NCBI GenBank assembly: GCA_019058445.1
Contig: JAHPZA010000003.1
Span: 128,001-192,000 of the forward strand
Source of the DNA: Promethearchaeota archaeon
Lineage (GTDB): Archaea > Asgardarchaeota > Lokiarchaeia > Sigyniarchaeales > SOKP01
Reading direction: 5' to 3'
DNA length: 64,000 nucleotides
Positions 7,092 to 41,484 of the stretch are shown piece by piece. The notes beneath the pieces were generated by a model. It ran no database searches. It was not told the origin of the DNA and saw only the letters and a list, made by a program, of their open reading frames with translations. A program made the position numbers and the translations under genes. The stretch's first letter is position 1; each line of letters opens with the position of its first letter.

Positions 7092-10000
7092 TTAAAGCTT
7101 TTTGCGCCATTCCTTTGCTTTTTCGATATTATTAATACTCTCGTATACTTCAACAATTTTCTTATAGCATCCTTTGGCCGCTGTACGATTACCTAACTTT
7201 TCATGCAATTCTCCAGCGCTAGATAGTTGATTTACCTGCGAATCATGGTTTCCCTCATCTGCATAGATTTGAGCTGCGCGTATACGTGTATCAATGGCCA
7301 TCTCGAACATCTCCTGCATTTCCTGAGAGCGTGCCAAGCTTCCAAGAGTCCACGCAACATCCGACATCGCACCACGTGATTCATTGATTTCCATTGATTT
7401 CTCAAACATAATCTTAGCTTCCGAATGGTTTCCCATCTGCCGATAAGCGGTACCAGCATTTTGATAATTGCTTGCAAGTCCCCCAACTTCATCAATCTCC
7501 CGGTTGATGTCCATTGCTGCTTTGTAATAATCAATTGCTTCTTTAAATTCCTGCAACTCATAGAATATACTTGCAATATTATTCATTGTGATCGCGACCT
7601 GTTTCATATTTCCCATCTCCCGAGAAATACCCATTGATTTCTCGAGATAATTCCTTGCTTCTTGGTATTGTTCCATGCTTTCATAAACCTCAGCAATTTT
7701 CCTATAAAGTAAATCCATATCTGCCTTGTTTCCAAGTTGTTCACAAATCGCAAAGTCCTCAAGATACCACTTGATAGCTTCTTTATGCATCCCGTTCTGC
7801 TGATACAATCCTGCAAGATCATACACAACTTTATCCTTCATTTCAATATCCCCGACTTGATCACAAATAGATATGGCTTCCGAGAAACGTGTTACTGCCA
7901 TTTTCAAATTACCTTGATCTGAATAAAACTTTCCGAGAGCGCGTGCAACTGATATTTGATTCGTACTATTACCCAATTCCTTATCAAGTTCAAAAGTCTT
8001 TTCTAAGAAATTAATTGCTTTTTTATTTTCACCTAATGCGTTGTAGCAAAGTGCAATATTCCATTGTTGGTTCCGAATCGAGGGCATATCATTAAGGATC
8101 GAATCTAATTCTATTACTCTCTCGTACCATGGGATTGCTGCTTGGAATTCTTTAGCATTATAATAGAGTTGAGCTATATCATACGCCCTATTTACTTGCA
8201 TCTTGATATCTTCTGTTTTTTCAGCAAATTTTATTGCCTTCTTATAACTCTCAACAGCATCATTTAAATTTCTAGATTTTGTATATAATTTTCCTCGGTT
8301 TAGCCAGGCAAGGGCTGTTTTTTCAAAAATCTCCTCCTTTTCTCCTACCTTAATTGCCTCCTGATTGTATTGTTGTGCTTTTTCAAGATTTCCAAGGTCC
8401 ATGTGAACCACAGTAAGGTCATTAAGGTAGTGTACTATAGATGGCAGATTTTGCTCATCACGGCCACTTTTTAGTGCTAATGAGATAAATTCGTCAGCTT
8501 TTTGCAAATCATTCGTGTTGTAATAAATATATCCTATTTCACTTTGGATATCTGATATAAGTGTAAGCAATCCCGTCTTATTAGCAAAATTCAATGCTAT
8601 TTCAAACTCCTCAATTGCTTTATCAGTGTTTCCCGCAGTTTTGTAAATCATTCCGCAACTCTTCCGAACTCTTGCCATGTTTTCGAAGCTTTTAACTTTC
8701 TCAAAAAGTTCAAAAGCAGTCTCAAAATGATAAATAGCATCATCATTTTTTTCAGCTCCGTTCAATGCTTGGGCATAGCACTTGTGGTATATCCCCAGAG
8801 ATAAATTATTTGAATTATTTTTACCCATCTCAACCGCTTTCTCAAAGAAAGGTAATGAATCCTCATAATCTTTCTTAAGGTAATAAGAATTTCCTATATC
8901 ATTATATAAATCAGCAAAATACTCCTTTATATCAACATTTTCAGCAACTTCAAGAGCTTTTTTATAGAAATCTATTGCTTTCTCATACTCCTTTTTATGA
9001 TGATATGAGATGCCAATGTTTCGATATTGTCTTGAAACAGACTCTAAATCTTCGATTTCTTTAGACAAAGTTAAAGCTTTTTCATAGGCTTCAATTGCAT
9101 CATCATTTTGCTTAAGATCTGTGTATGCTATACCCATGTTCGCATACAACCCGCTTTTTCCCACAATTCTGCCCGTTTCTTCATATAATACAAGAGCTAA
9201 TTTGAATTCTTCAATAGCTTTCTCATTTTTATCTAGATCCATGTAAAGCGATCCAATATTAGTATGTGTCACTGCCATAGCTCCTTTTTTTCCTAGTTTC
9301 TCATCGATTGCTAAGGCTTCCATATAAAGCTTCTCCGCCTCTTCAAGAATACCGAGGTTCTGTAATGCCAATCCTACATTATTCTTTGCAGTGGCGATTC
9401 CTTCAATGTCTCCAATTTCCTCGTTCATTTTTAAAGAGTCCTGGTAATATCTAAGCGCAGTTTTATAATCCTTCATATTTGTGTATACCTGGCCTATATT
9501 ATTGATCAGTGTTCCAATTTCTTTAACAAGATTTATTTCTCTCGCAAGATCAAGTGCTTCGTTGTAATATTGTAATGCTTCTTCGTTTTTATTCGTATTT
9601 CGATAAACAGATGCTACTCTTGATAAAGATATGACAATAGACCCCTTATTGTTCATCTCTCTACTCAAAGTAAGCGCCTTCTCGTATTTTTCCATGGCAT
9701 CATTGAATTTACCTAAAACAACATCATTTCCTCCAAGTGAATGAAGATACATGGGTATTCGGATTTTTTCGTCAATTTTAATGGCTATATTCAGGGCTTC
9801 TGAAAAATATTCCCGAGCCTTGGTATACTCCCCTCTTGATTCATACACATCCCCTATACTCATTAATCGGCCAGCTTTTCCTGATAAATCTTTTAATTCC
9901 TCAGAAATTTCAAGCGCTTCTTTGAAGTAATTCATAGCAAGATCTATTTCCCCAAAATTAAAAAAAAGGATGCCTAAGTTGTGAAGCGATATTCCTAACG

Positions 10001-11909
10001 AGTTTTTCTGATTTAATTCTCGATAAATATTAACTGATAACTGGAATAATTGTTTTGCTTCTTTCATCACGCCCATAGATTTCTTCGCAAGCCCCATATT
10101 ATTGTAAATATTTGCTTTAGAAAGTGGATCGTCTAGCATCTCAGCTATCGTTATAGCCTCTTTATATTTTTCAAGAGCTTTTTCAAAATCACCAGAATGC
10201 CTAAATACCTCCCCAATCGCTGATATTCTTAGTGCTTTCCATTCCATTTTGCCAAGAAGATCATCTATTTTAATGGCTTCTAAATAATACTCCCGTGCTT
10301 TTGAGAATTCCCCTTTATCAATATATACACTCGCAATGTTATTTAAAATACTGGCTTTCATAGGAAGATTACCAACATCTTCGTTCAATTCTAATGCCTC
10401 ATTATACAAGGCGAGCGCACCATCAAAATCACCTTGCAAATCATTAATCAATGCCTTATCTGTAAGCACATTTGCCATAACTGATCCCAATCCTTCTTTT
10501 TCGGCTAAGGTCCAAGCCCTTTCATAAAGTTGTTTAGCTTTTTCTAGTCTCCCAGACATCCTATGCAATCTTGCTGCGTTGAACAGAAAAGCAGGTAATC
10601 CAATAACATCGTTTATTTTTTCTGCAATTTCTGCTGCTTCTTCAAATAAATTAAGTGCTTCTTCTATTCTTCCATGTGAATCATATACTAGAGCCGTTGA
10701 ATTCATGAAATTGGCTAACGACTCTTCATTATTATATTTTTTTGCAAGAGTTATCCCAATCTCACTACACCGAAGAGCATCATCGATTGACGTGAGCGAC
10801 CAATAAATGAACCACGCAAGATGGTATTCTTTGAGATCTGTAACTGTATCAAGGATGGGTTTCATGAACTTATGCAAGTCTACATCGCACTTTTCCTCCT
10901 TTTTGATGGAAGGAGGCTCTGACTTCTTGAACATGATGGGCCACAATACATTTTCCAATAAATATGATGTATGGGTAACAACTTTGTAAAGTTTTGTTTT
11001 AATCTTCATTTTTTTGTACTCATTTGCCAGATCGACCAATATTTTATCCACTTGGGATTCTCCAGAACTGAAATCTCTGTCATCAACAGTATTATCCTCC
11101 ATTGTTAAAACTTCATAGGCATCAGTAATCGCGGGATCACGATCGAAAGCATGGTCAATCCATATGATCTCATCTAGCTCCTGCATTTCTCTTAACGTTG
11201 GACCAATATCGAAATCATCGCTTCCGGAATAACCAATAACCACGAGAGATCGTCTTGAGGTAAGTGCATTCACTACGGGAATTTTGTATGATTCTATCGC
11301 AAAAGTTTCCTCCGCAGCACGATCCTTTCCAAGCGCTGAGATAGTAGTCACCAATGAATCTGTGGTATCTTCATCTGTGACAAAGTTTTTCTTGGAACCG
11401 TGGATCTTACACAGCGGAAACTTTTTCTTTTTTCTTAAGGCTTCTATCGCCTCAAAGTTCTCATAGTCCTTTTTATTTATGATGAGCTTAATGTCATCCT
11501 TAGAATGGAGTTGTTCAGCTAATGCCATTTCAATTAAATAATCAAAATTAGTTGTGATGACATCTTCCCCAATTTGAATAGCCTTTGCTAAGAAATGGTG
11601 AATAATATTTGGCTTATCAAATAAGTCGAAAAAATTCATGAATTGTAGGGAGGGATCAATTATCCGCTGGATGCCTTCGATAATCAGTTCATATCGAAGG
11701 TTATCAAGTTGAAGGATGCGTTCCACTTCATCCTTGGGACAGCTTGATTCCACGATAACGTTTACAATGTGCTTGGCAGAAAGTAGACATGAAGGAGCGT
11801 CTATGGAAATCCCTGCGCCCACTAAAAACGTGAATTCCTTATCTGGGTTGAAGATCTCCTCCATATTTAAGTCTAATTTATTAAAATTTGCATTACTCAT
11901 TATTGACAA
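7092..11909 (-). CDS. SIR2-like domain protein with about 30 TPR repeats
   Basis: N-terminal FLVGAGIS, ITTNFD, KIHGS, VIGYSGSDDFDI (SIR2_2-like). From ~aa 355 onward, continuous ~40-aa repeats of the type A..LNNIG.VY...G.Y..AL.YY..AL. Confidence 0.9.
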   Translation of the reverse strand: MSIMSNANFNKLDLNMEEIFNPDKEFTFLVGAGISIDAPSCLLSAKHIVNVIVESSCPKDEVERILQLDNLRYELIIEGIQRIIDPSLQFMNFFDLFDKPNIIHHFLAKAIQIGEDVITTNFDYLIEMALAEQLHSKDDIKLIINKKDYENFEAIEALRKKKKFPLCKIHGSKKNFVTDEDTTDSLVTTISALGKDRAAEETFAIESYKIPVVNALTSRRSLVVIGYSGSDDFDIGPTLREMQELDEIIWIDHAFDRDPAITDAYEVLTMEDNTVDDRDFSSGESQVDKILVDLANEYKKMKIKTKLYKVVTHTSYLLENVLWPIMFKKSEPPSIKKEEKCDVDLHKFMKPILDTVTDLKEYHLAWFIYWSLTSIDDALRCSEIGITLAKKYNNEESLANFMNSTALVYDSHGRIEEALNLFEEAAEIAEKINDVIGLPAFLFNAARLHRMSGRLEKAKQLYERAWTLAEKEGLGSVMANVLTDKALINDLQGDFDGALALYNEALELNEDVGNLPMKASILNNIASVYIDKGEFSKAREYYLEAIKIDDLLGKMEWKALRISAIGEVFRHSGDFEKALEKYKEAITIAEMLDDPLSKANIYNNMGLAKKSMGVMKEAKQLFQLSVNIYRELNQKNSLGISLHNLGILFFNFGEIDLAMNYFKEALEISEELKDLSGKAGRLMSIGDVYESRGEYTKAREYFSEALNIAIKIDEKIRIPMYLHSLGGNDVVLGKFNDAMEKYEKALTLSREMNNKGSIVISLSRVASVYRNTNKNEEALQYYNEALDLAREINLVKEIGTLINNIGQVYTNMKDYKTALRYYQDSLKMNEEIGDIEGIATAKNNVGLALQNLGILEEAEKLYMEALAIDEKLGKKGAMAVTHTNIGSLYMDLDKNEKAIEEFKLALVLYEETGRIVGKSGLYANMGIAYTDLKQNDDAIEAYEKALTLSKEIEDLESVSRQYRNIGISYHHKKEYEKAIDFYKKALEVAENVDIKEYFADLYNDIGNSYYLKKDYEDSLPFFEKAVEMGKNNSNNLSLGIYHKCYAQALNGAEKNDDAIYHFETAFELFEKVKSFENMARVRKSCGMIYKTAGNTDKAIEEFEIALNFANKTGLLTLISDIQSEIGYIYYNTNDLQKADEFISLALKSGRDEQNLPSIVHYLNDLTVVHMDLGNLEKAQQYNQEAIKVGEKEEIFEKTALAWLNRGKLYTKSRNLNDAVESYKKAIKFAEKTEDIKMQVNRAYDIAQLYYNAKEFQAAIPWYERVIELDSILNDMPSIRNQQWNIALCYNALGENKKAINFLEKTFELDKELGNSTNQISVARALGKFYSDQGNLKMAVTRFSEAISICDQVGDIEMKDKVVYDLAGLYQQNGMHKEAIKWYLEDFAICEQLGNKADMDLLYRKIAEVYESMEQYQEARNYLEKSMGISREMGNMKQVAITMNNIASIFYELQEFKEAIDYYKAAMDINREIDEVGGLASNYQNAGTAYRQMGNHSEAKIMFEKSMEINESRGAMSDVAWTLGSLARSQEMQEMFEMAIDTRIRAAQIYADEGNHDSQVNQLSSAGELHEKLGNRTAAKGCYKKIVEVYESINNIEKAKEWRKKL

Positions 11910-37650: not shown

Positions 37651-39330
37651 ATGACTGAAGATTTCCAATTCATTTATAAAGAAGAGTTTTGGTATATTAG
37701 TGCGTTCTTGAATACGGTGCTCGTTGATAGCATTGCAAAAAGTGCTGAAATTGAAATCCTCATAAAAAATGAATTTAGTAAATTAAAACCAGAAGATATT
37801 TTTCGCCAAGATTTAAAAGATGATATCATCGGTATGGTAAACAATATATCTCTTAATTGCAAATGGGTCCCGTTTTTGAAAAGTTTTCCCTATAAGGATG
37901 AAAATTCTGAGAGAGAGTTTAACACCTTAGGCTATTTTCAGTTTGAAGTTGAGTATTACAAAAATGATCAAGCAAAAAAAGAAGCTTTAAATCCCTTATT
38001 AATCCAACAAGTCCCTTATATCGTTTTAAATATTTTAAGAGAATATGGTAAAAGACCTGAAAATAAAGGAGTTTACTTTGATACTGAGAGTCCTATATAT
38101 GTATTTGCGACGTCTAATAAGACAAAACCTACTGAAATCCAATGGACCAGAGAAAATGTTGAAAAATATAAAAAGACCATAGCCTATTGGACGGTTATCT
38201 ATTCTGGTCAATGGCCTGATTATTCAGAGAAGTTATATGATCAACGGATTCAAAACAATCTTTCCAATCGTCTTTCTGAATTGCATTTTATTTACCGTAA
38301 TTCGGGATTTATTTACATGGCAGAAGAAAATTATGAGAGATTCTTTGAATCTTACATGAAACAATTTGTGCTTGAACCCACTCCTAAAATGCGAGCAGTT
38401 CTTTTCGTGTTAAGATCAATAAACGAGTCTCTGGATTTATTATTCTTAAAAACTTACTCGGGTACTTTTACAAATATGAAGACGATTGAAGATAAAATTA
38501 AAAATCTCAGATTTCTAAGAGGACTAGTCCAAACGCAATTAAGTTTAATATATAATGAATTAGATTATAATAGGAGACAACACTATACCAGTGTCTTGAA
38601 GCATTTGATTAGTCAATTCGATCTAAATGATGTAGTGAATAGAGTGAATGAGAAATTTAATTTGATATATGGAGCTATGCAGGAGCTATATCTCAAAAAG
38701 AGTGAAGAAGACGCACAAAGAACCGAAAGAAGATTAAACCTTCTAAACTTACTCTTTGGCGCAGGTATTTTAGCAGATTTAGCTGGTGTGATTATGATTG
38801 CGTTTAGTTTACAAGAAAGTGATTCACCCGCAGTATTGCTCCATATTTCTATATTCATCATTATATTAGGAATTTTAGTCCTTACCATTGGATATTACAT
38901 CTATTCAAAGATAAAGATCATAGAAACTGAAGTCGGAAAAACGGTGGATGCTGTAATAGAGGATGATAGGGGCAATGTGGTTTTGATTAAGCGCAAGTAC
39001 CCTCCTTTCAAAGATTATTATGCCCTTCCCGGAGGGTTTATAGAAAAAGGTGAAACACCAAAACAGGCGGTTATAAGGGAAGTAAAGGAAGAAACCAATC
39101 TTACCATTGAAATACTTAAAAAAATTGGTATCTTTGATGAAGAAGGACGAGATCCCCGCGGTAAAATAATTTCTACCGCGTTTAAATGCCGTATAATTGG
39201 CGACACTTCCCAAATGCAAAGTGGTACCGATTCAGCGAGTGTTGAACTTATCCCTAAGGAAAAAATAGCTACACTCGATCTAGCTTTTGATCACAGAGAT
39301 ATTTTAAAGGATGCAGATATTATTGAATAA
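37651..39330 (+). CDS. CorA-like 2-TM membrane protein fused to a C-terminal Nudix (ADP-ribose pyrophosphatase-type) domain
   Basis: Soluble N-domain, long amphipathic helices, two TM helices (aa ~362-418), then LPGGFIEKGETPKQAVIREVKEETNL, RDPRG, LAFDH. The Nudix call is strong; the CorA-like call is inferred from topology. Confidence 0.75.
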   Translation: MTEDFQFIYKEEFWYISAFLNTVLVDSIAKSAEIEILIKNEFSKLKPEDIFRQDLKDDIIGMVNNISLNCKWVPFLKSFPYKDENSEREFNTLGYFQFEVEYYKNDQAKKEALNPLLIQQVPYIVLNILREYGKRPENKGVYFDTESPIYVFATSNKTKPTEIQWTRENVEKYKKTIAYWTVIYSGQWPDYSEKLYDQRIQNNLSNRLSELHFIYRNSGFIYMAEENYERFFESYMKQFVLEPTPKMRAVLFVLRSINESLDLLFLKTYSGTFTNMKTIEDKIKNLRFLRGLVQTQLSLIYNELDYNRRQHYTSVLKHLISQFDLNDVVNRVNEKFNLIYGAMQELYLKKSEEDAQRTERRLNLLNLLFGAGILADLAGVIMIAFSLQESDSPAVLLHISIFIIILGILVLTIGYYIYSKIKIIETEVGKTVDAVIEDDRGNVVLIKRKYPPFKDYYALPGGFIEKGETPKQAVIREVKEETNLTIEILKKIGIFDEEGRDPRGKIISTAFKCRIIGDTSQMQSGTDSASVELIPKEKIATLDLAFDHRDILKDADIIE

Positions 39331-39476
39331 ATTTGTTTTTCTTTTTTTTTTTTCAGTATTGTTTATTATTACTTATTTATCTTTAAAGAGAAATTCTTTT
39401 ATTTTCATTCAGCATATATTTTTTAAATTATAATGAAAAATATAATAAATCCAATAATACAAGTAAAACATGAACA

Positions 39477-40787
39477 ATGAGTCAAAATATGGCATCTAAT
39501 CTTGATGAGATATATAAATCCATTGTAAATGATTCTAAAGATAAAACGGGTATTGTCTGCTTAAATTGCTTATTTAAATACATCACAATTGAAGATTTAC
39601 AAGATTTTGCTAAAGAACATGAAATTCACATTGTTAAAAAAAGTGAGATGAGAAAGCTTGATTATTTTAAATATATATGTCACGCTTTTTATAATGATTA
39701 TCAGAGTAATTCTCAAACTCAAGCACTCTATTCTAATTGTCTAACTTATATAGGTGAAATGTTATTTAGAAATGAGAAATTTTTTGACATCTTTAAGATG
39801 CACGATTTTCTAAGTAAACAAGAAATCATTGAAGTCTTTGCAGATTGGTGTGCTGATCTTGGCATTTCTGTGTTTAATACCTCAGAAATCTCTGAATATT
39901 CATTAGATCTATATTTTACGAAGAGAAAACCTAGACTGAGAACTGAAGCTGTTTTTTTAAGAACTGGAGAAGAAATGGATGAAAAGAATTATGAGAAAAC
40001 ATTAGAATTCATTAAAAATTCTAAGAAGATATCTGCATGGACTGTCTTTGTGACAACGCCATTAGGAGCATTTAATATAGGGCTTTATAAATTAATTGGC
40101 GATATGGAGAGATTAAACACATGGCTATATATAGTTGATCCTTTAAAAATGAGAATTTTTGGAATTATTCGGGGCAAAAAATCTAAAGATCATGATCAAG
40201 ATTTAAGAGATGAATATATCAAGAAATTACCTCGTGAACCAATTAGAGCTCCTTCCCAAGTCATTAAGTTTTCGAAATATGACTTAAATGATGCAGAAAG
40301 GTATAAACCTTCAAACTTTACAATATTTGAACTTATAAGCGAAAGGGAACATGAAGAATTGATTAAAATACCACTAAAAGATCCAAGATATAAAAAAATC
40401 TTTAGAAACCTTCTAATTATAGAAGAAAATTCAGGAATCTCAGTTTTCTCATATTCCAGCGAAATTGTTACGATGGATGATAATTTAATTTCAGGATTTT
40501 TGAGTGCAATTGATCATTTTATGTCAGAAGTAGGAGGCTCCTCATCTTTAAAGGAAATAGATTATAAAGGTTTCTTTGTACAAGCGGCATACGGTGAATT
40601 TGTAAAAATGGCTGTTTTCCTTTCCGAACCTGGGGATCAAATATTAAAAGAGCGTCTTTCTTATTTTATTAAACAATTTGAGGAAAAATATAAGGAACAA
40701 ATAGAAGAATTTAAGTTAACTGGGAATGTTTCAGTCTTTACTAATAAAGAGATAAAATTTCTTGCTCAAGAAATCTTAGAAATTTAG
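39477..40787 (+). CDS. Multidomain protein: CxxC N-region, Mrr/REase-like middle domain, C-terminal longin-like domain
   Basis: C-terminal LLIIEENSGISVFSY...DDNLISGFLSAIDHFMSEV...LKEIDYKGF...FIKQFEEKY...GNVSVF. Confidence 0.7.
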   Translation: MSQNMASNLDEIYKSIVNDSKDKTGIVCLNCLFKYITIEDLQDFAKEHEIHIVKKSEMRKLDYFKYICHAFYNDYQSNSQTQALYSNCLTYIGEMLFRNEKFFDIFKMHDFLSKQEIIEVFADWCADLGISVFNTSEISEYSLDLYFTKRKPRLRTEAVFLRTGEEMDEKNYEKTLEFIKNSKKISAWTVFVTTPLGAFNIGLYKLIGDMERLNTWLYIVDPLKMRIFGIIRGKKSKDHDQDLRDEYIKKLPREPIRAPSQVIKFSKYDLNDAERYKPSNFTIFELISEREHEELIKIPLKDPRYKKIFRNLLIIEENSGISVFSYSSEIVTMDDNLISGFLSAIDHFMSEVGGSSSLKEIDYKGFFVQAAYGEFVKMAVFLSEPGDQILKERLSYFIKQFEEKYKEQIEEFKLTGNVSVFTNKEIKFLAQEILEI

Positions 40788-40807
40788 AAATATTTTATCT
40801 TTTGATT

Positions 40808-41233
40808 TCAAGAGATCGGATGTTTTTCTTTAAAAATTAACTCGATAATTAACTCATCTCTGGATTTGGTTATATAATCTTCCAATTCATGAAATATATT
40901 AATATTTCCATCCCATTTGATTAGCTCTTCTTTTGGATATCTCTGGAAAAATAAGGTTATAACGTGGTCTAATAGTCTCAAGACTTTTTTATGTTTAATC
41001 CTTCTAGAAGAACTTGCTAAAAAAATGAAATTATTTCTTTTAATTAAATCGAACCGGAGGTTACTAAATTCTAAACAATTCAGCTGTTCATGAGTTAATT
41101 CTTGCGTAAAAGAAGTTAATGCACTTATAAGCATACCAAAAACTTGTTCTTCAATTTGCGGATTACTAACTTTACTGGCAACCACTTTTCCACTGTCCGT
41201 TATTATCAATATGTCCTGCAGCGTATCGAACAT
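40808..41233 (-). CDS. Stand-alone longin-like domain protein
   Basis: LQDILIITDSGKVV...QVFGMLISALTSFTQEL...FFQRY...WDGNINIF. ATG 41233 is preferred over the GTG at 41287. Confidence 0.75.
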   Translation of the reverse strand: MFDTLQDILIITDSGKVVASKVSNPQIEEQVFGMLISALTSFTQELTHEQLNCLEFSNLRFDLIKRNNFIFLASSSRRIKHKKVLRLLDHVITLFFQRYPKEELIKWDGNINIFHELEDYITKSRDELIIELIFKEKHPIS

Positions 41234-41484
41234 GATTGTTCTTCCAAACCTAAAGGTCTCTCTATCGAAAAAAATACTTCCAAACACAATAATCGAGTAA
41301 TTTATATTTAAATTTAATGCAAAAATTTGTCAATATATTCAATTTTTTTGACGAATATTAGAAACACTAAAAGTATTAATTTTTATGTGTGGGTTGCCAT
41401 GTCTTAAAACATTTATTAAATGGGATATTTAAATACAACAATCAAATAGTAATATATTCAAAAAAATTAAAAAATCAAATTAAA

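Follow-up and report, generated by a model that had tools for sequence, protein, structure and literature searches.

What does a nucleotide hydrolase do at the tail of a two-pass membrane protein in an Asgard archaeon? The question is raised by a 559-aa open reading frame (ORF) that begins with ATG and occupies 37651..39330 on the forward strand of a 64,000-nucleotide stretch of DNA, hereafter the window, from contig JAHPZA010000003.1 of a Promethearchaeota archaeon (assembly GCA_019058445.1). Its product runs from a cytoplasmic region of ~360 aa through two transmembrane (TM) helices into a Nudix domain. Our favored answer, which we hold tentatively and would not yet call probable, is that the protein is a CorA-fold transducer or channel coupled to a nucleotide and equipped with its own ADP-ribose-type hydrolase. 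A sequence-only reading of the window had proposed a CorA-like membrane protein fused to an ADP-ribose-type Nudix domain, possibly a ligand-gated pore supplied with ADP-ribose by a SIR2 protein in the same window; analysis supports the CorA-like fold as a prediction and the ADP-ribose type of the Nudix domain as the likely one, and it finds the fusion to be widespread, but it does not support the SIR2 link. The parts of the gene, in window coordinates, are these:

37651..39330 (+), whole ORF: predicted CorA-fold module, two TM helices and Nudix domain, present as a single copy in its own genome
37651..38130 (+), N-terminal alpha/beta subdomain, aa 1-160: AlphaFold2 (AF2) model with a predicted local distance difference test (pLDDT) score of mostly 88-98, aligning with the soluble domains of CorA, ZntB and Mrs2
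38131..38370 (+), most conserved cytoplasmic block, aa 161-240: W165, YSGQWxDY (184-191) and NLSNRxSELH (203-212)
38371..38736 (+), helical bundle and start of the stalk helix, aa 241-362: model helices, including NRRQHYT (307-313)
38737..38811 (+), TM1, aa 363-387: hydropathy peak, continuous with the stalk helix
38812..38838 (+), short acidic extracytoplasmic loop, aa 388-396: no GMN, weak conservation
38839..38910 (+), TM2, aa 397-420, followed by a K-rich linker of ~8-10 residues: hydropathy peak 2.98, model helix 392-427
38938..39312 (+), Nudix domain, probably of the NrtR/NadM ADP-ribose-pyrophosphatase type, aa 430-554: PF00293, E 6e-20
39034..39102 (+), Nudix box, aa 462-484: G-F-I-E-K-G-E...R-E-V-K-E-E-T-N-L, catalytic Glu and Arg intact
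39148..39162 (+), RDPRG motif, aa 500-504: common to 3i9x and NrtR EF2700 (2fml)
39280..39294 (+), LAFDH motif, aa 544-548: common to 3i9x, 2fml and 2yyh

The likeness to CorA comes from predicted structure. An earlier full-length AF2 model, built on a shallow alignment, had a pLDDT of 69 with poor N-terminal regions, and its Foldseek matches were all to Nudix domains. A model of aa 1-428 built on a 50-sequence alignment of divergent family members reached a pLDDT of 88.7 and a predicted template-modelling score of 0.79. In this model, an alpha/beta domain leads into a helical bundle (helices 243-270, 276-306 and 310-322) and then into a 63-residue helix (aa 325-387) that becomes TM1 and is followed by TM2; the helices of aa 243-387 are collinear with the willow and stalk helices of CorA. 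Foldseek returned nothing at E ≤0.001 for this model, with several CorA chains at a probability of up to 0.99. When its top 1000 PDB chains were structurally re-aligned, CorA, MRS2, ZntB and CmaX filled ~25 of the top 30 rows (Z 7.1-12.0). Among soluble domains, the matches included Campylobacter jejuni CorA (8zah; Z 12.0, 118 aa aligned, root-mean-square deviation 2.7), Methanocaldococcus jannaschii CorA (4egw; Z 9.6) and ZntB (3nvo; Z 8.8). Full-length matches had Z 7.7-8.7 over 215-245 residues and were collinear, with model residues 22-420 set against CorA residues 21-349.

The modeled protein thus shares with CorA, Mrs2, ZntB and CmaX (the MIT superfamily, PF01544) an alpha/beta domain, a helical bundle and a stalk helix that runs into TM1 and then TM2, and it shares with CorA-type channels a basic C-terminal flank, a topology with both termini inside and a structural alignment that appears collinear from end to end. 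It differs from them in having no detectable sequence homology and no GMN motif, in a cytoplasmic region ~70 residues longer, in the enzyme domain after TM2 and in conservation that falls in the cytoplasmic half of TM1 rather than at its outer end. The proposed CorA-like N-terminal region with two TM helices therefore survives as a confidently predicted fold, but not as a sequence relationship; we call the predicted architecture CorA-like but leave the protein outside the CorA family.

Membrane topology can be read from the protein itself. Hydropathy gives two peaks, at ~aa 363-387 and ~aa 397-420. The acidic loop between them (SLQESDSPAVLLH), which lacks GMN as had been noted, contains no K or R, and K/R-rich stretches lie before TM1 and after TM2, a distribution that fits an N-in/C-in protein. 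The two-TM hairpin with both soluble halves on one side, as first proposed, thus agrees with both hydropathy and charge. The two strings quoted from the end of the soluble region can be located as well: aa 307-336 read NRRQHYTSVLKHLISQFDLNDVVNRVNEKF, and aa 358-365 read TERRLNLL. Because only a ~10-residue linker follows TM2 in such a protein, the Nudix domain would sit on the cytoplasmic face of the membrane. These data support an arrangement in which both halves face the cytoplasm and ~10 residues separate the membrane from the Nudix domain, next to the stalk's base.

The membrane module belongs to a family of its own. Residues 1-428 had no matches among Pfam, NCBIfam and PADLOC models, a profile of the module matched nothing among PDB sequences, and the same profile retrieved only 100 cluster representatives from 1.84 billion proteins, so the family is small and undescribed. 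A search for the family DUF155/RMD1 (PF02582) found no hmmscan match at E ≤1; a genome search for it was empty, as were its controls, and is uninformative. Roughly half of the 100 representatives are 400-440 aa long, end just past TM2 and carry no Nudix domain, which is likewise absent from 23 of 50 divergent representatives; these Nudix-less proteins form separate clades.

Across the 50 divergent members, W165 and E210 never vary, and ~20 polar residues reach a conservation of 90% or more. Conservation is strongest in a cytoplasmic polar cluster (W165, YSGQWxDY, NLSNRxSELH and NRRxHY), with the conserved polar residues dense at aa 165-223 and 307-311; the block at aa 161-240 is a possible ligand or metal pocket. 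In the close clade, conservation peaks in TM1 (0.86), compared with 0.65 for TM2 and 0.52, the lowest value, for the loop. L365, N366, G370, V/I373 and D376 are conserved in the cytoplasmic half of TM1, whose cytoplasmic end has the pattern L-N-x-L-x-G, with N366 and G370 conserved family-wide. We take the module to be more than an anchor because Nudix-less relatives keep it, TM1 is strongly conserved and so is the polar cluster of the N-terminal domain.

The enzymatic half is easier to place. PF00293 matches aa 430-554 with 72 bits (cut-off 21.1) and an E value of 6e-20, and the box at aa 462-484 fits GX5EX7REUXEEXGU with a sole deviation, N for the final G. The nearly canonical box, RDPRG and LAFDH that had been picked out by eye are thus all there, and every residue of the three is invariant in 28 homologues, G462, E468, R476, E477, E480 and E481 among them. 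The best NCBIfam matches are NadM-Nudix and NrtR (E 1e-13 to 2e-12, below the cut-offs set for those full-length proteins), and the PDB matches are 3i9x, 2yyh, 2fml (NrtR EF2700), 2qjt/2qjo (NadM-Nudix ADP-ribose pyrophosphatase) and 3gz8 (NrtR with ADP-ribose), with RDPRG and LAFDH aligning with the same motifs of 3i9x and 2fml. The listed structure matches of the domain include no TRPM2 or NUDT9 chain. The proposed ADP-ribose type is consistent with all of this, since the domain sits with the NrtR/NadM clade by family models, by PDB matches and by shared motifs.

In the NrtR/NadM clade, ADP-ribose pyrophosphatase activity accompanies an intact signature, whereas domains with a degenerate one only bind their ligand (PMC2330246). 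Of 43 full-length genomic copies taken from 44 loci here, 42 have an intact box, and the domain looks active and is probably catalytically competent; because the box is intact almost universally, hydrolysis seems to matter. The divergent members P0121, P0129 and P0133 and the eukaryotic member P0135, described below, keep the Nudix domain with a degenerate box. A role in binding, beyond catalysis, is therefore plausible, because these few members suggest that binding alone can suffice.

On the favored reading, the CorA-fold module would form an oligomeric membrane transducer, possibly an ion-conducting pore, whose state would be linked to ADP-ribose or a similar nucleoside-diphosphate-X ligand. 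The tethered Nudix domain would bind this ligand and, in most lineages, hydrolyze it and so end the signal, making the whole a prokaryotic 'channel-enzyme'. We infer the oligomerization, the conduction, the identity of the ligand and the coupling of the two halves. A prediction with four copies of aa 225-428 and the family alignment (score 0.15, mark 0.42) speaks neither for nor against oligomerization. A bolder version, which we consider doubtful, is that Asgard archaea possess ADP-ribose-coupled channel-enzymes in which a CorA-fold pore gated or reset by its Nudix domain would tie NAD turnover to ion flux across the membrane, an independent invention resembling TRPM2, with at least one eukaryotic descendant whose Nudix domain would be a non-catalytic sensor.

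The closest functional precedent, by analogy, is the CorA effector of type III CRISPR systems, with TRPM2 a further analogy. CRISPR CorA effectors bind S-adenosylmethionine-AMP (SAM-AMP) and have a ligand-degrading enzyme encoded next to them or fused to them (PMC10600005); the partner is NrN, DEDD or a SAM-AMP lyase, fused in some species, and the putative SAM-AMP site of BfrCorA is at an interdomain interface (PMC10600005). Both those effectors and the present protein combine a divergent CorA-type module, a unique N-terminal domain and a nucleotide-degrading enzyme, and in both the proposed ligand site, putative here as well, lies in the cytoplasmic domain. They differ in that the enzyme here is a Nudix domain fused after TM2, in that no CRISPR or defense context surrounds the gene, in the likely class of ligand (ADP-ribose-like rather than SAM-AMP) and in a pattern of conservation and synteny that resembles a housekeeping or accessory physiological gene.

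TRPM2 is an ADP-ribose-gated cation channel with a C-terminal NUDT9-homology domain. Like the present protein, it joins a channel-like membrane body to a C-terminal cytoplasmic Nudix domain of ADP-ribose type, and both families have members with active and with degenerate boxes. The membrane folds, however, are unrelated, a tetrameric six-TM TRP channel in the one case and a two-TM CorA-like module in the other, and the Nudix domain here is NrtR/NadM-like, not NUDT9-like; the features that define a TRPM2-type protein are lacking, and 'convergent with TRPM2' is an analogy, not membership. NrtR and NadM-Nudix proteins probably belong to the same Nudix subfamily (RDPRG and LAFDH), use the domain as an added sensor or enzyme and, like some members here, adjoin NAD biosynthesis genes such as nadA. 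Their partners are a winged-helix DNA-binding domain or an NMN adenylyltransferase, whereas here the partner is a membrane module, and the signature that is intact in most members here is degenerate in most NrtRs (PMC2330246).

Among predicted structures, a shape search of the ESM Atlas returned the protein's own cluster and, in row 2, a cluster of the uncharacterized family MJ0711_N (PF27233), with a template-modelling score of 0.61 by query and 0.71 by target over 311 aligned residues. The likeness to MJ0711_N and to the equally uncharacterized MJ1566_N (PF27230) consists of this one predicted-structure match of the MJ0711_N cluster, and we found no literature on either family. The same search returned bacterial clusters of similar predicted shape (template-modelling scores of 0.60-0.69) that carry C-terminal GGACT, GNAT or alpha-amylase domains, which hints at a wider theme of a CorA-like scaffold joined to an enzyme.

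The fusion is neither unique to this assembly nor an artifact. A search of 5.8 billion proteins found more than 500 relatives; the best 120 are 62-100% identical over their full length, all match PF00293, and their source names are Promethearchaeota/Lokiarchaeota, Hermodarchaeota and Thorarchaeota. They are currently annotated only as 'NUDIX hydrolase' or '8-oxo-dGTP diphosphatase', and we found no paper on the family. A second homologue search, made with alignment A3, brought up nothing new, its list being confined to close Asgard copies. In species-representative genomes, a scan added Helarchaeota and Hodarchaeota labels and a few bins whose labels are implausible. Contigs with the gene at L093, L149 and L150 are found in bins labeled Nanopelagicaceae, Woesearchaeota and Deferrimicrobium and are probably mis-binned or mislabeled. 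The gene is single-copy in its own genome (4.6 Mb, 92.6% complete) and present in 129 of 400 genomes of the phylum, including 89 of 134 in its own family. At one locus, L043 (G241:C77:196135-197418), an in-frame TAA interrupts the orthologue, leaving ORFs of 236 and 324 aa; either this copy is a pseudogene or the stop codon is an error of sequencing.

In a maximum-likelihood tree of the N-terminal module, the Nudix-bearing rows form one clade, with a support of 94 in the Shimodaira-Hasegawa-like approximate likelihood ratio test (SH-aLRT), and the Nudix-less clades lie outside it, from which we infer a single fusion onto a pre-existing, independent membrane module; the Nudix domain, in other words, appears to have been added once. 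A strict box search found no stand-alone Nudix gene adjacent to the Nudix-less loci. Two paralogue clades show ~62-68% and ~50% identity to the query.

The family also has a eukaryotic member. P0135 (849 aa), from the MMETSP eukaryote transcriptomes, has the same N-terminal module, two TM helices and Nudix domain, together with low-complexity extensions, and its Nudix box is degenerate (R-S-I-M-E-D). A longer form, P0257, lies at L033:175-3045 on a 7.8-kb contig of ~48% GC that also carries cytochrome P450 and Pho88 genes. In the tree, P0135 falls within the Asgard Nudix clade, where P0127 is its sister (SH-aLRT 98), and a search with P0135 found only itself and P0127. This placement suggests that a protist acquired the gene from an Asgard archaeon.

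The surroundings of the gene are those of a housekeeping region, not a defense island: its neighbors are hypD, hypE, a xylose-isomerase-like TIM-barrel gene, hypF, two longin-domain genes, an Fe-S protein gene and hisF/hisH. The gene itself probably forms its own transcript, given an AT-rich spacer upstream of the ORF and, immediately downstream, the following feature:

39334..39356 (+), T-rich run directly past the stop codon, read from the sequence

This run is likely an archaeal terminator, so that the gene would end its own transcript. Farther downstream, at 39477-41287, lies a convergent pair that encodes a 436-aa protein without a Pfam match and a 159-aa protein with a Fuz/Mon1-type longin match.

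Elsewhere, the gene can be found beside NAD biosynthesis. In two related genera, it occupies a fixed slot between nadA (quinolinate synthase) and a hexapeptide-transferase / ThiF / Roadblock / L37e / LSM block (in other genomes, loci L036, L038, L041-L058, L065, L067 and L068). Both paralogue clades use this slot, and L047 holds both, tail to tail. The link between the gene and NAD biosynthesis is thus limited to certain lineages.

A second possible connection to NAD was the SIR2 protein, which had been suggested as a source of ADP-ribose. The protein is indeed encoded in the window (1605 aa, 7092-11909, reverse strand), with an N-terminal SIR2_2 domain followed by a very long TPR array. Of 400 genomes, 135 contain the family to which its N-domain belongs, and a Lokiarchaeia-type genome may have up to four or more copies; the family is present in genera without the gene (g6, 4/4) and absent from the gene-bearing genomes G169, G187 and G188. 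We therefore rejected co-occurrence with SIR2 as a specific link, since the family is multi-copy and its distribution does not match that of the gene.

Several results weigh against a nucleotide-coupled transducer or channel. On the structural side, Z scores of 8-12 can be reached by a common helical arrangement: syntaxin and spectrin rows score similarly, and a wide structural search listed mostly generic helical bundles. Sequence comparison offers no similarity to CorA, with PF01544 unmatched at E ≤1 and a probability of 0.5% when the family alignment A3 was compared by hhalign with ten Asgard CorAs, which in their canonical form carry YGMNF and KKKWL. Within the membrane, TM1 conservation shows no significant helical periodicity (p = 0.41), the loop contains neither GMN nor any other conserved motif, and the loop and TM2 are variable, unlike a selectivity filter. 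As for its biology, the nadA linkage is confined to the two related genera, nadA lying on another contig (C9) here, and near-complete genomes of the same genus, such as G173 (98%), lack the gene. It is also missing from whole sister genera, and because of this patchiness we regard it as conserved but accessory.

The best-surviving alternative, which we nevertheless think unlikely, is a membrane-tethered housekeeping pyrophosphatase for ADP-ribose or another nucleoside-diphosphate-X compound, whose CorA-shaped part would anchor, oligomerize or regulate the enzyme (for example, by sensing Mg2+) and would not conduct. Such an enzyme would explain the strong purifying selection on the catalytic box and the housekeeping context (hypDEF and hisFH here, nadA in other genera), and it needs no conserved loop resembling a selectivity filter; the genome also encodes four other Nudix genes, and paralogues may specialize by location. 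A mere anchor is harder to reconcile with Nudix-less members that keep the whole N-terminal module and TM hairpin, or with TM1 being the best-conserved segment, complete with invariant polar and small residues, and a housekeeping enzyme is harder to reconcile with members that retain the Nudix domain despite having lost its catalytic residues.

Alternatively, sensing could reside in the other half. A signal-gated CorA-like effector would bind a signaling nucleotide in its N-terminal pocket, with the Nudix domain as an off-switch, much as in the CRISPR CorA/NrN pair. The conserved polar cluster in the cytoplasmic domain recalls the putative SAM-AMP site of BfrCorA, fusion of CorA to a ligand-degrading enzyme is documented (PMC10600005), and the Nudix box is intact in nearly all copies. 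We judge this improbable, however, because the 44 compared loci contain no cas genes and have no cas10, CBASS, Thoeris or other signal-generating gene nearby; PADLOC matches only the generic Nudix part, and an identity of at least 62% across many genera with stable synteny is atypical of defense genes.

Very improbable is a divergent but genuine CorA-type transporter of Mg2+ or other divalent cations that happens to carry a Mg2+-dependent enzyme: the predicted CorA-like fold would fit it, as would the absence of a canonical CorA (PF01544) from the gene's own 92.6%-complete genome when most relatives of the same family have one, but GMN is absent and the loop unconserved, that genome has MgtE (two adjacent MgtE-domain ORFs of ~186-189 aa on contig C5), complete genomes of the same genus lack the gene, and in many other genomes the gene coexists with a canonical YGMNF CorA, for which it is therefore not simply a substitute.

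What emerges is a real, uncharacterized family, built on a design, a CorA-like module paired with a nucleotide-degrading enzyme, that is already known. The work defines an unannotated domain family of ~430 residues that is widespread in Lokiarchaeia-type Asgard archaea and whose module can stand alone, and the short, conserved protein, with clear catalytic and TM1 target residues, should make biochemistry straightforward. The homologue in the transcriptome of a marine eukaryote is relevant to the question of gene exchange between eukaryotes and Asgard archaea. If the nucleotide-coupled reading is true, the protein would be the first prokaryotic ADP-ribose-linked channel-enzyme, and it would provide a second, non-defense case of a CorA-like module joined to a ligand-degrading enzyme, which would suggest a general design rule.

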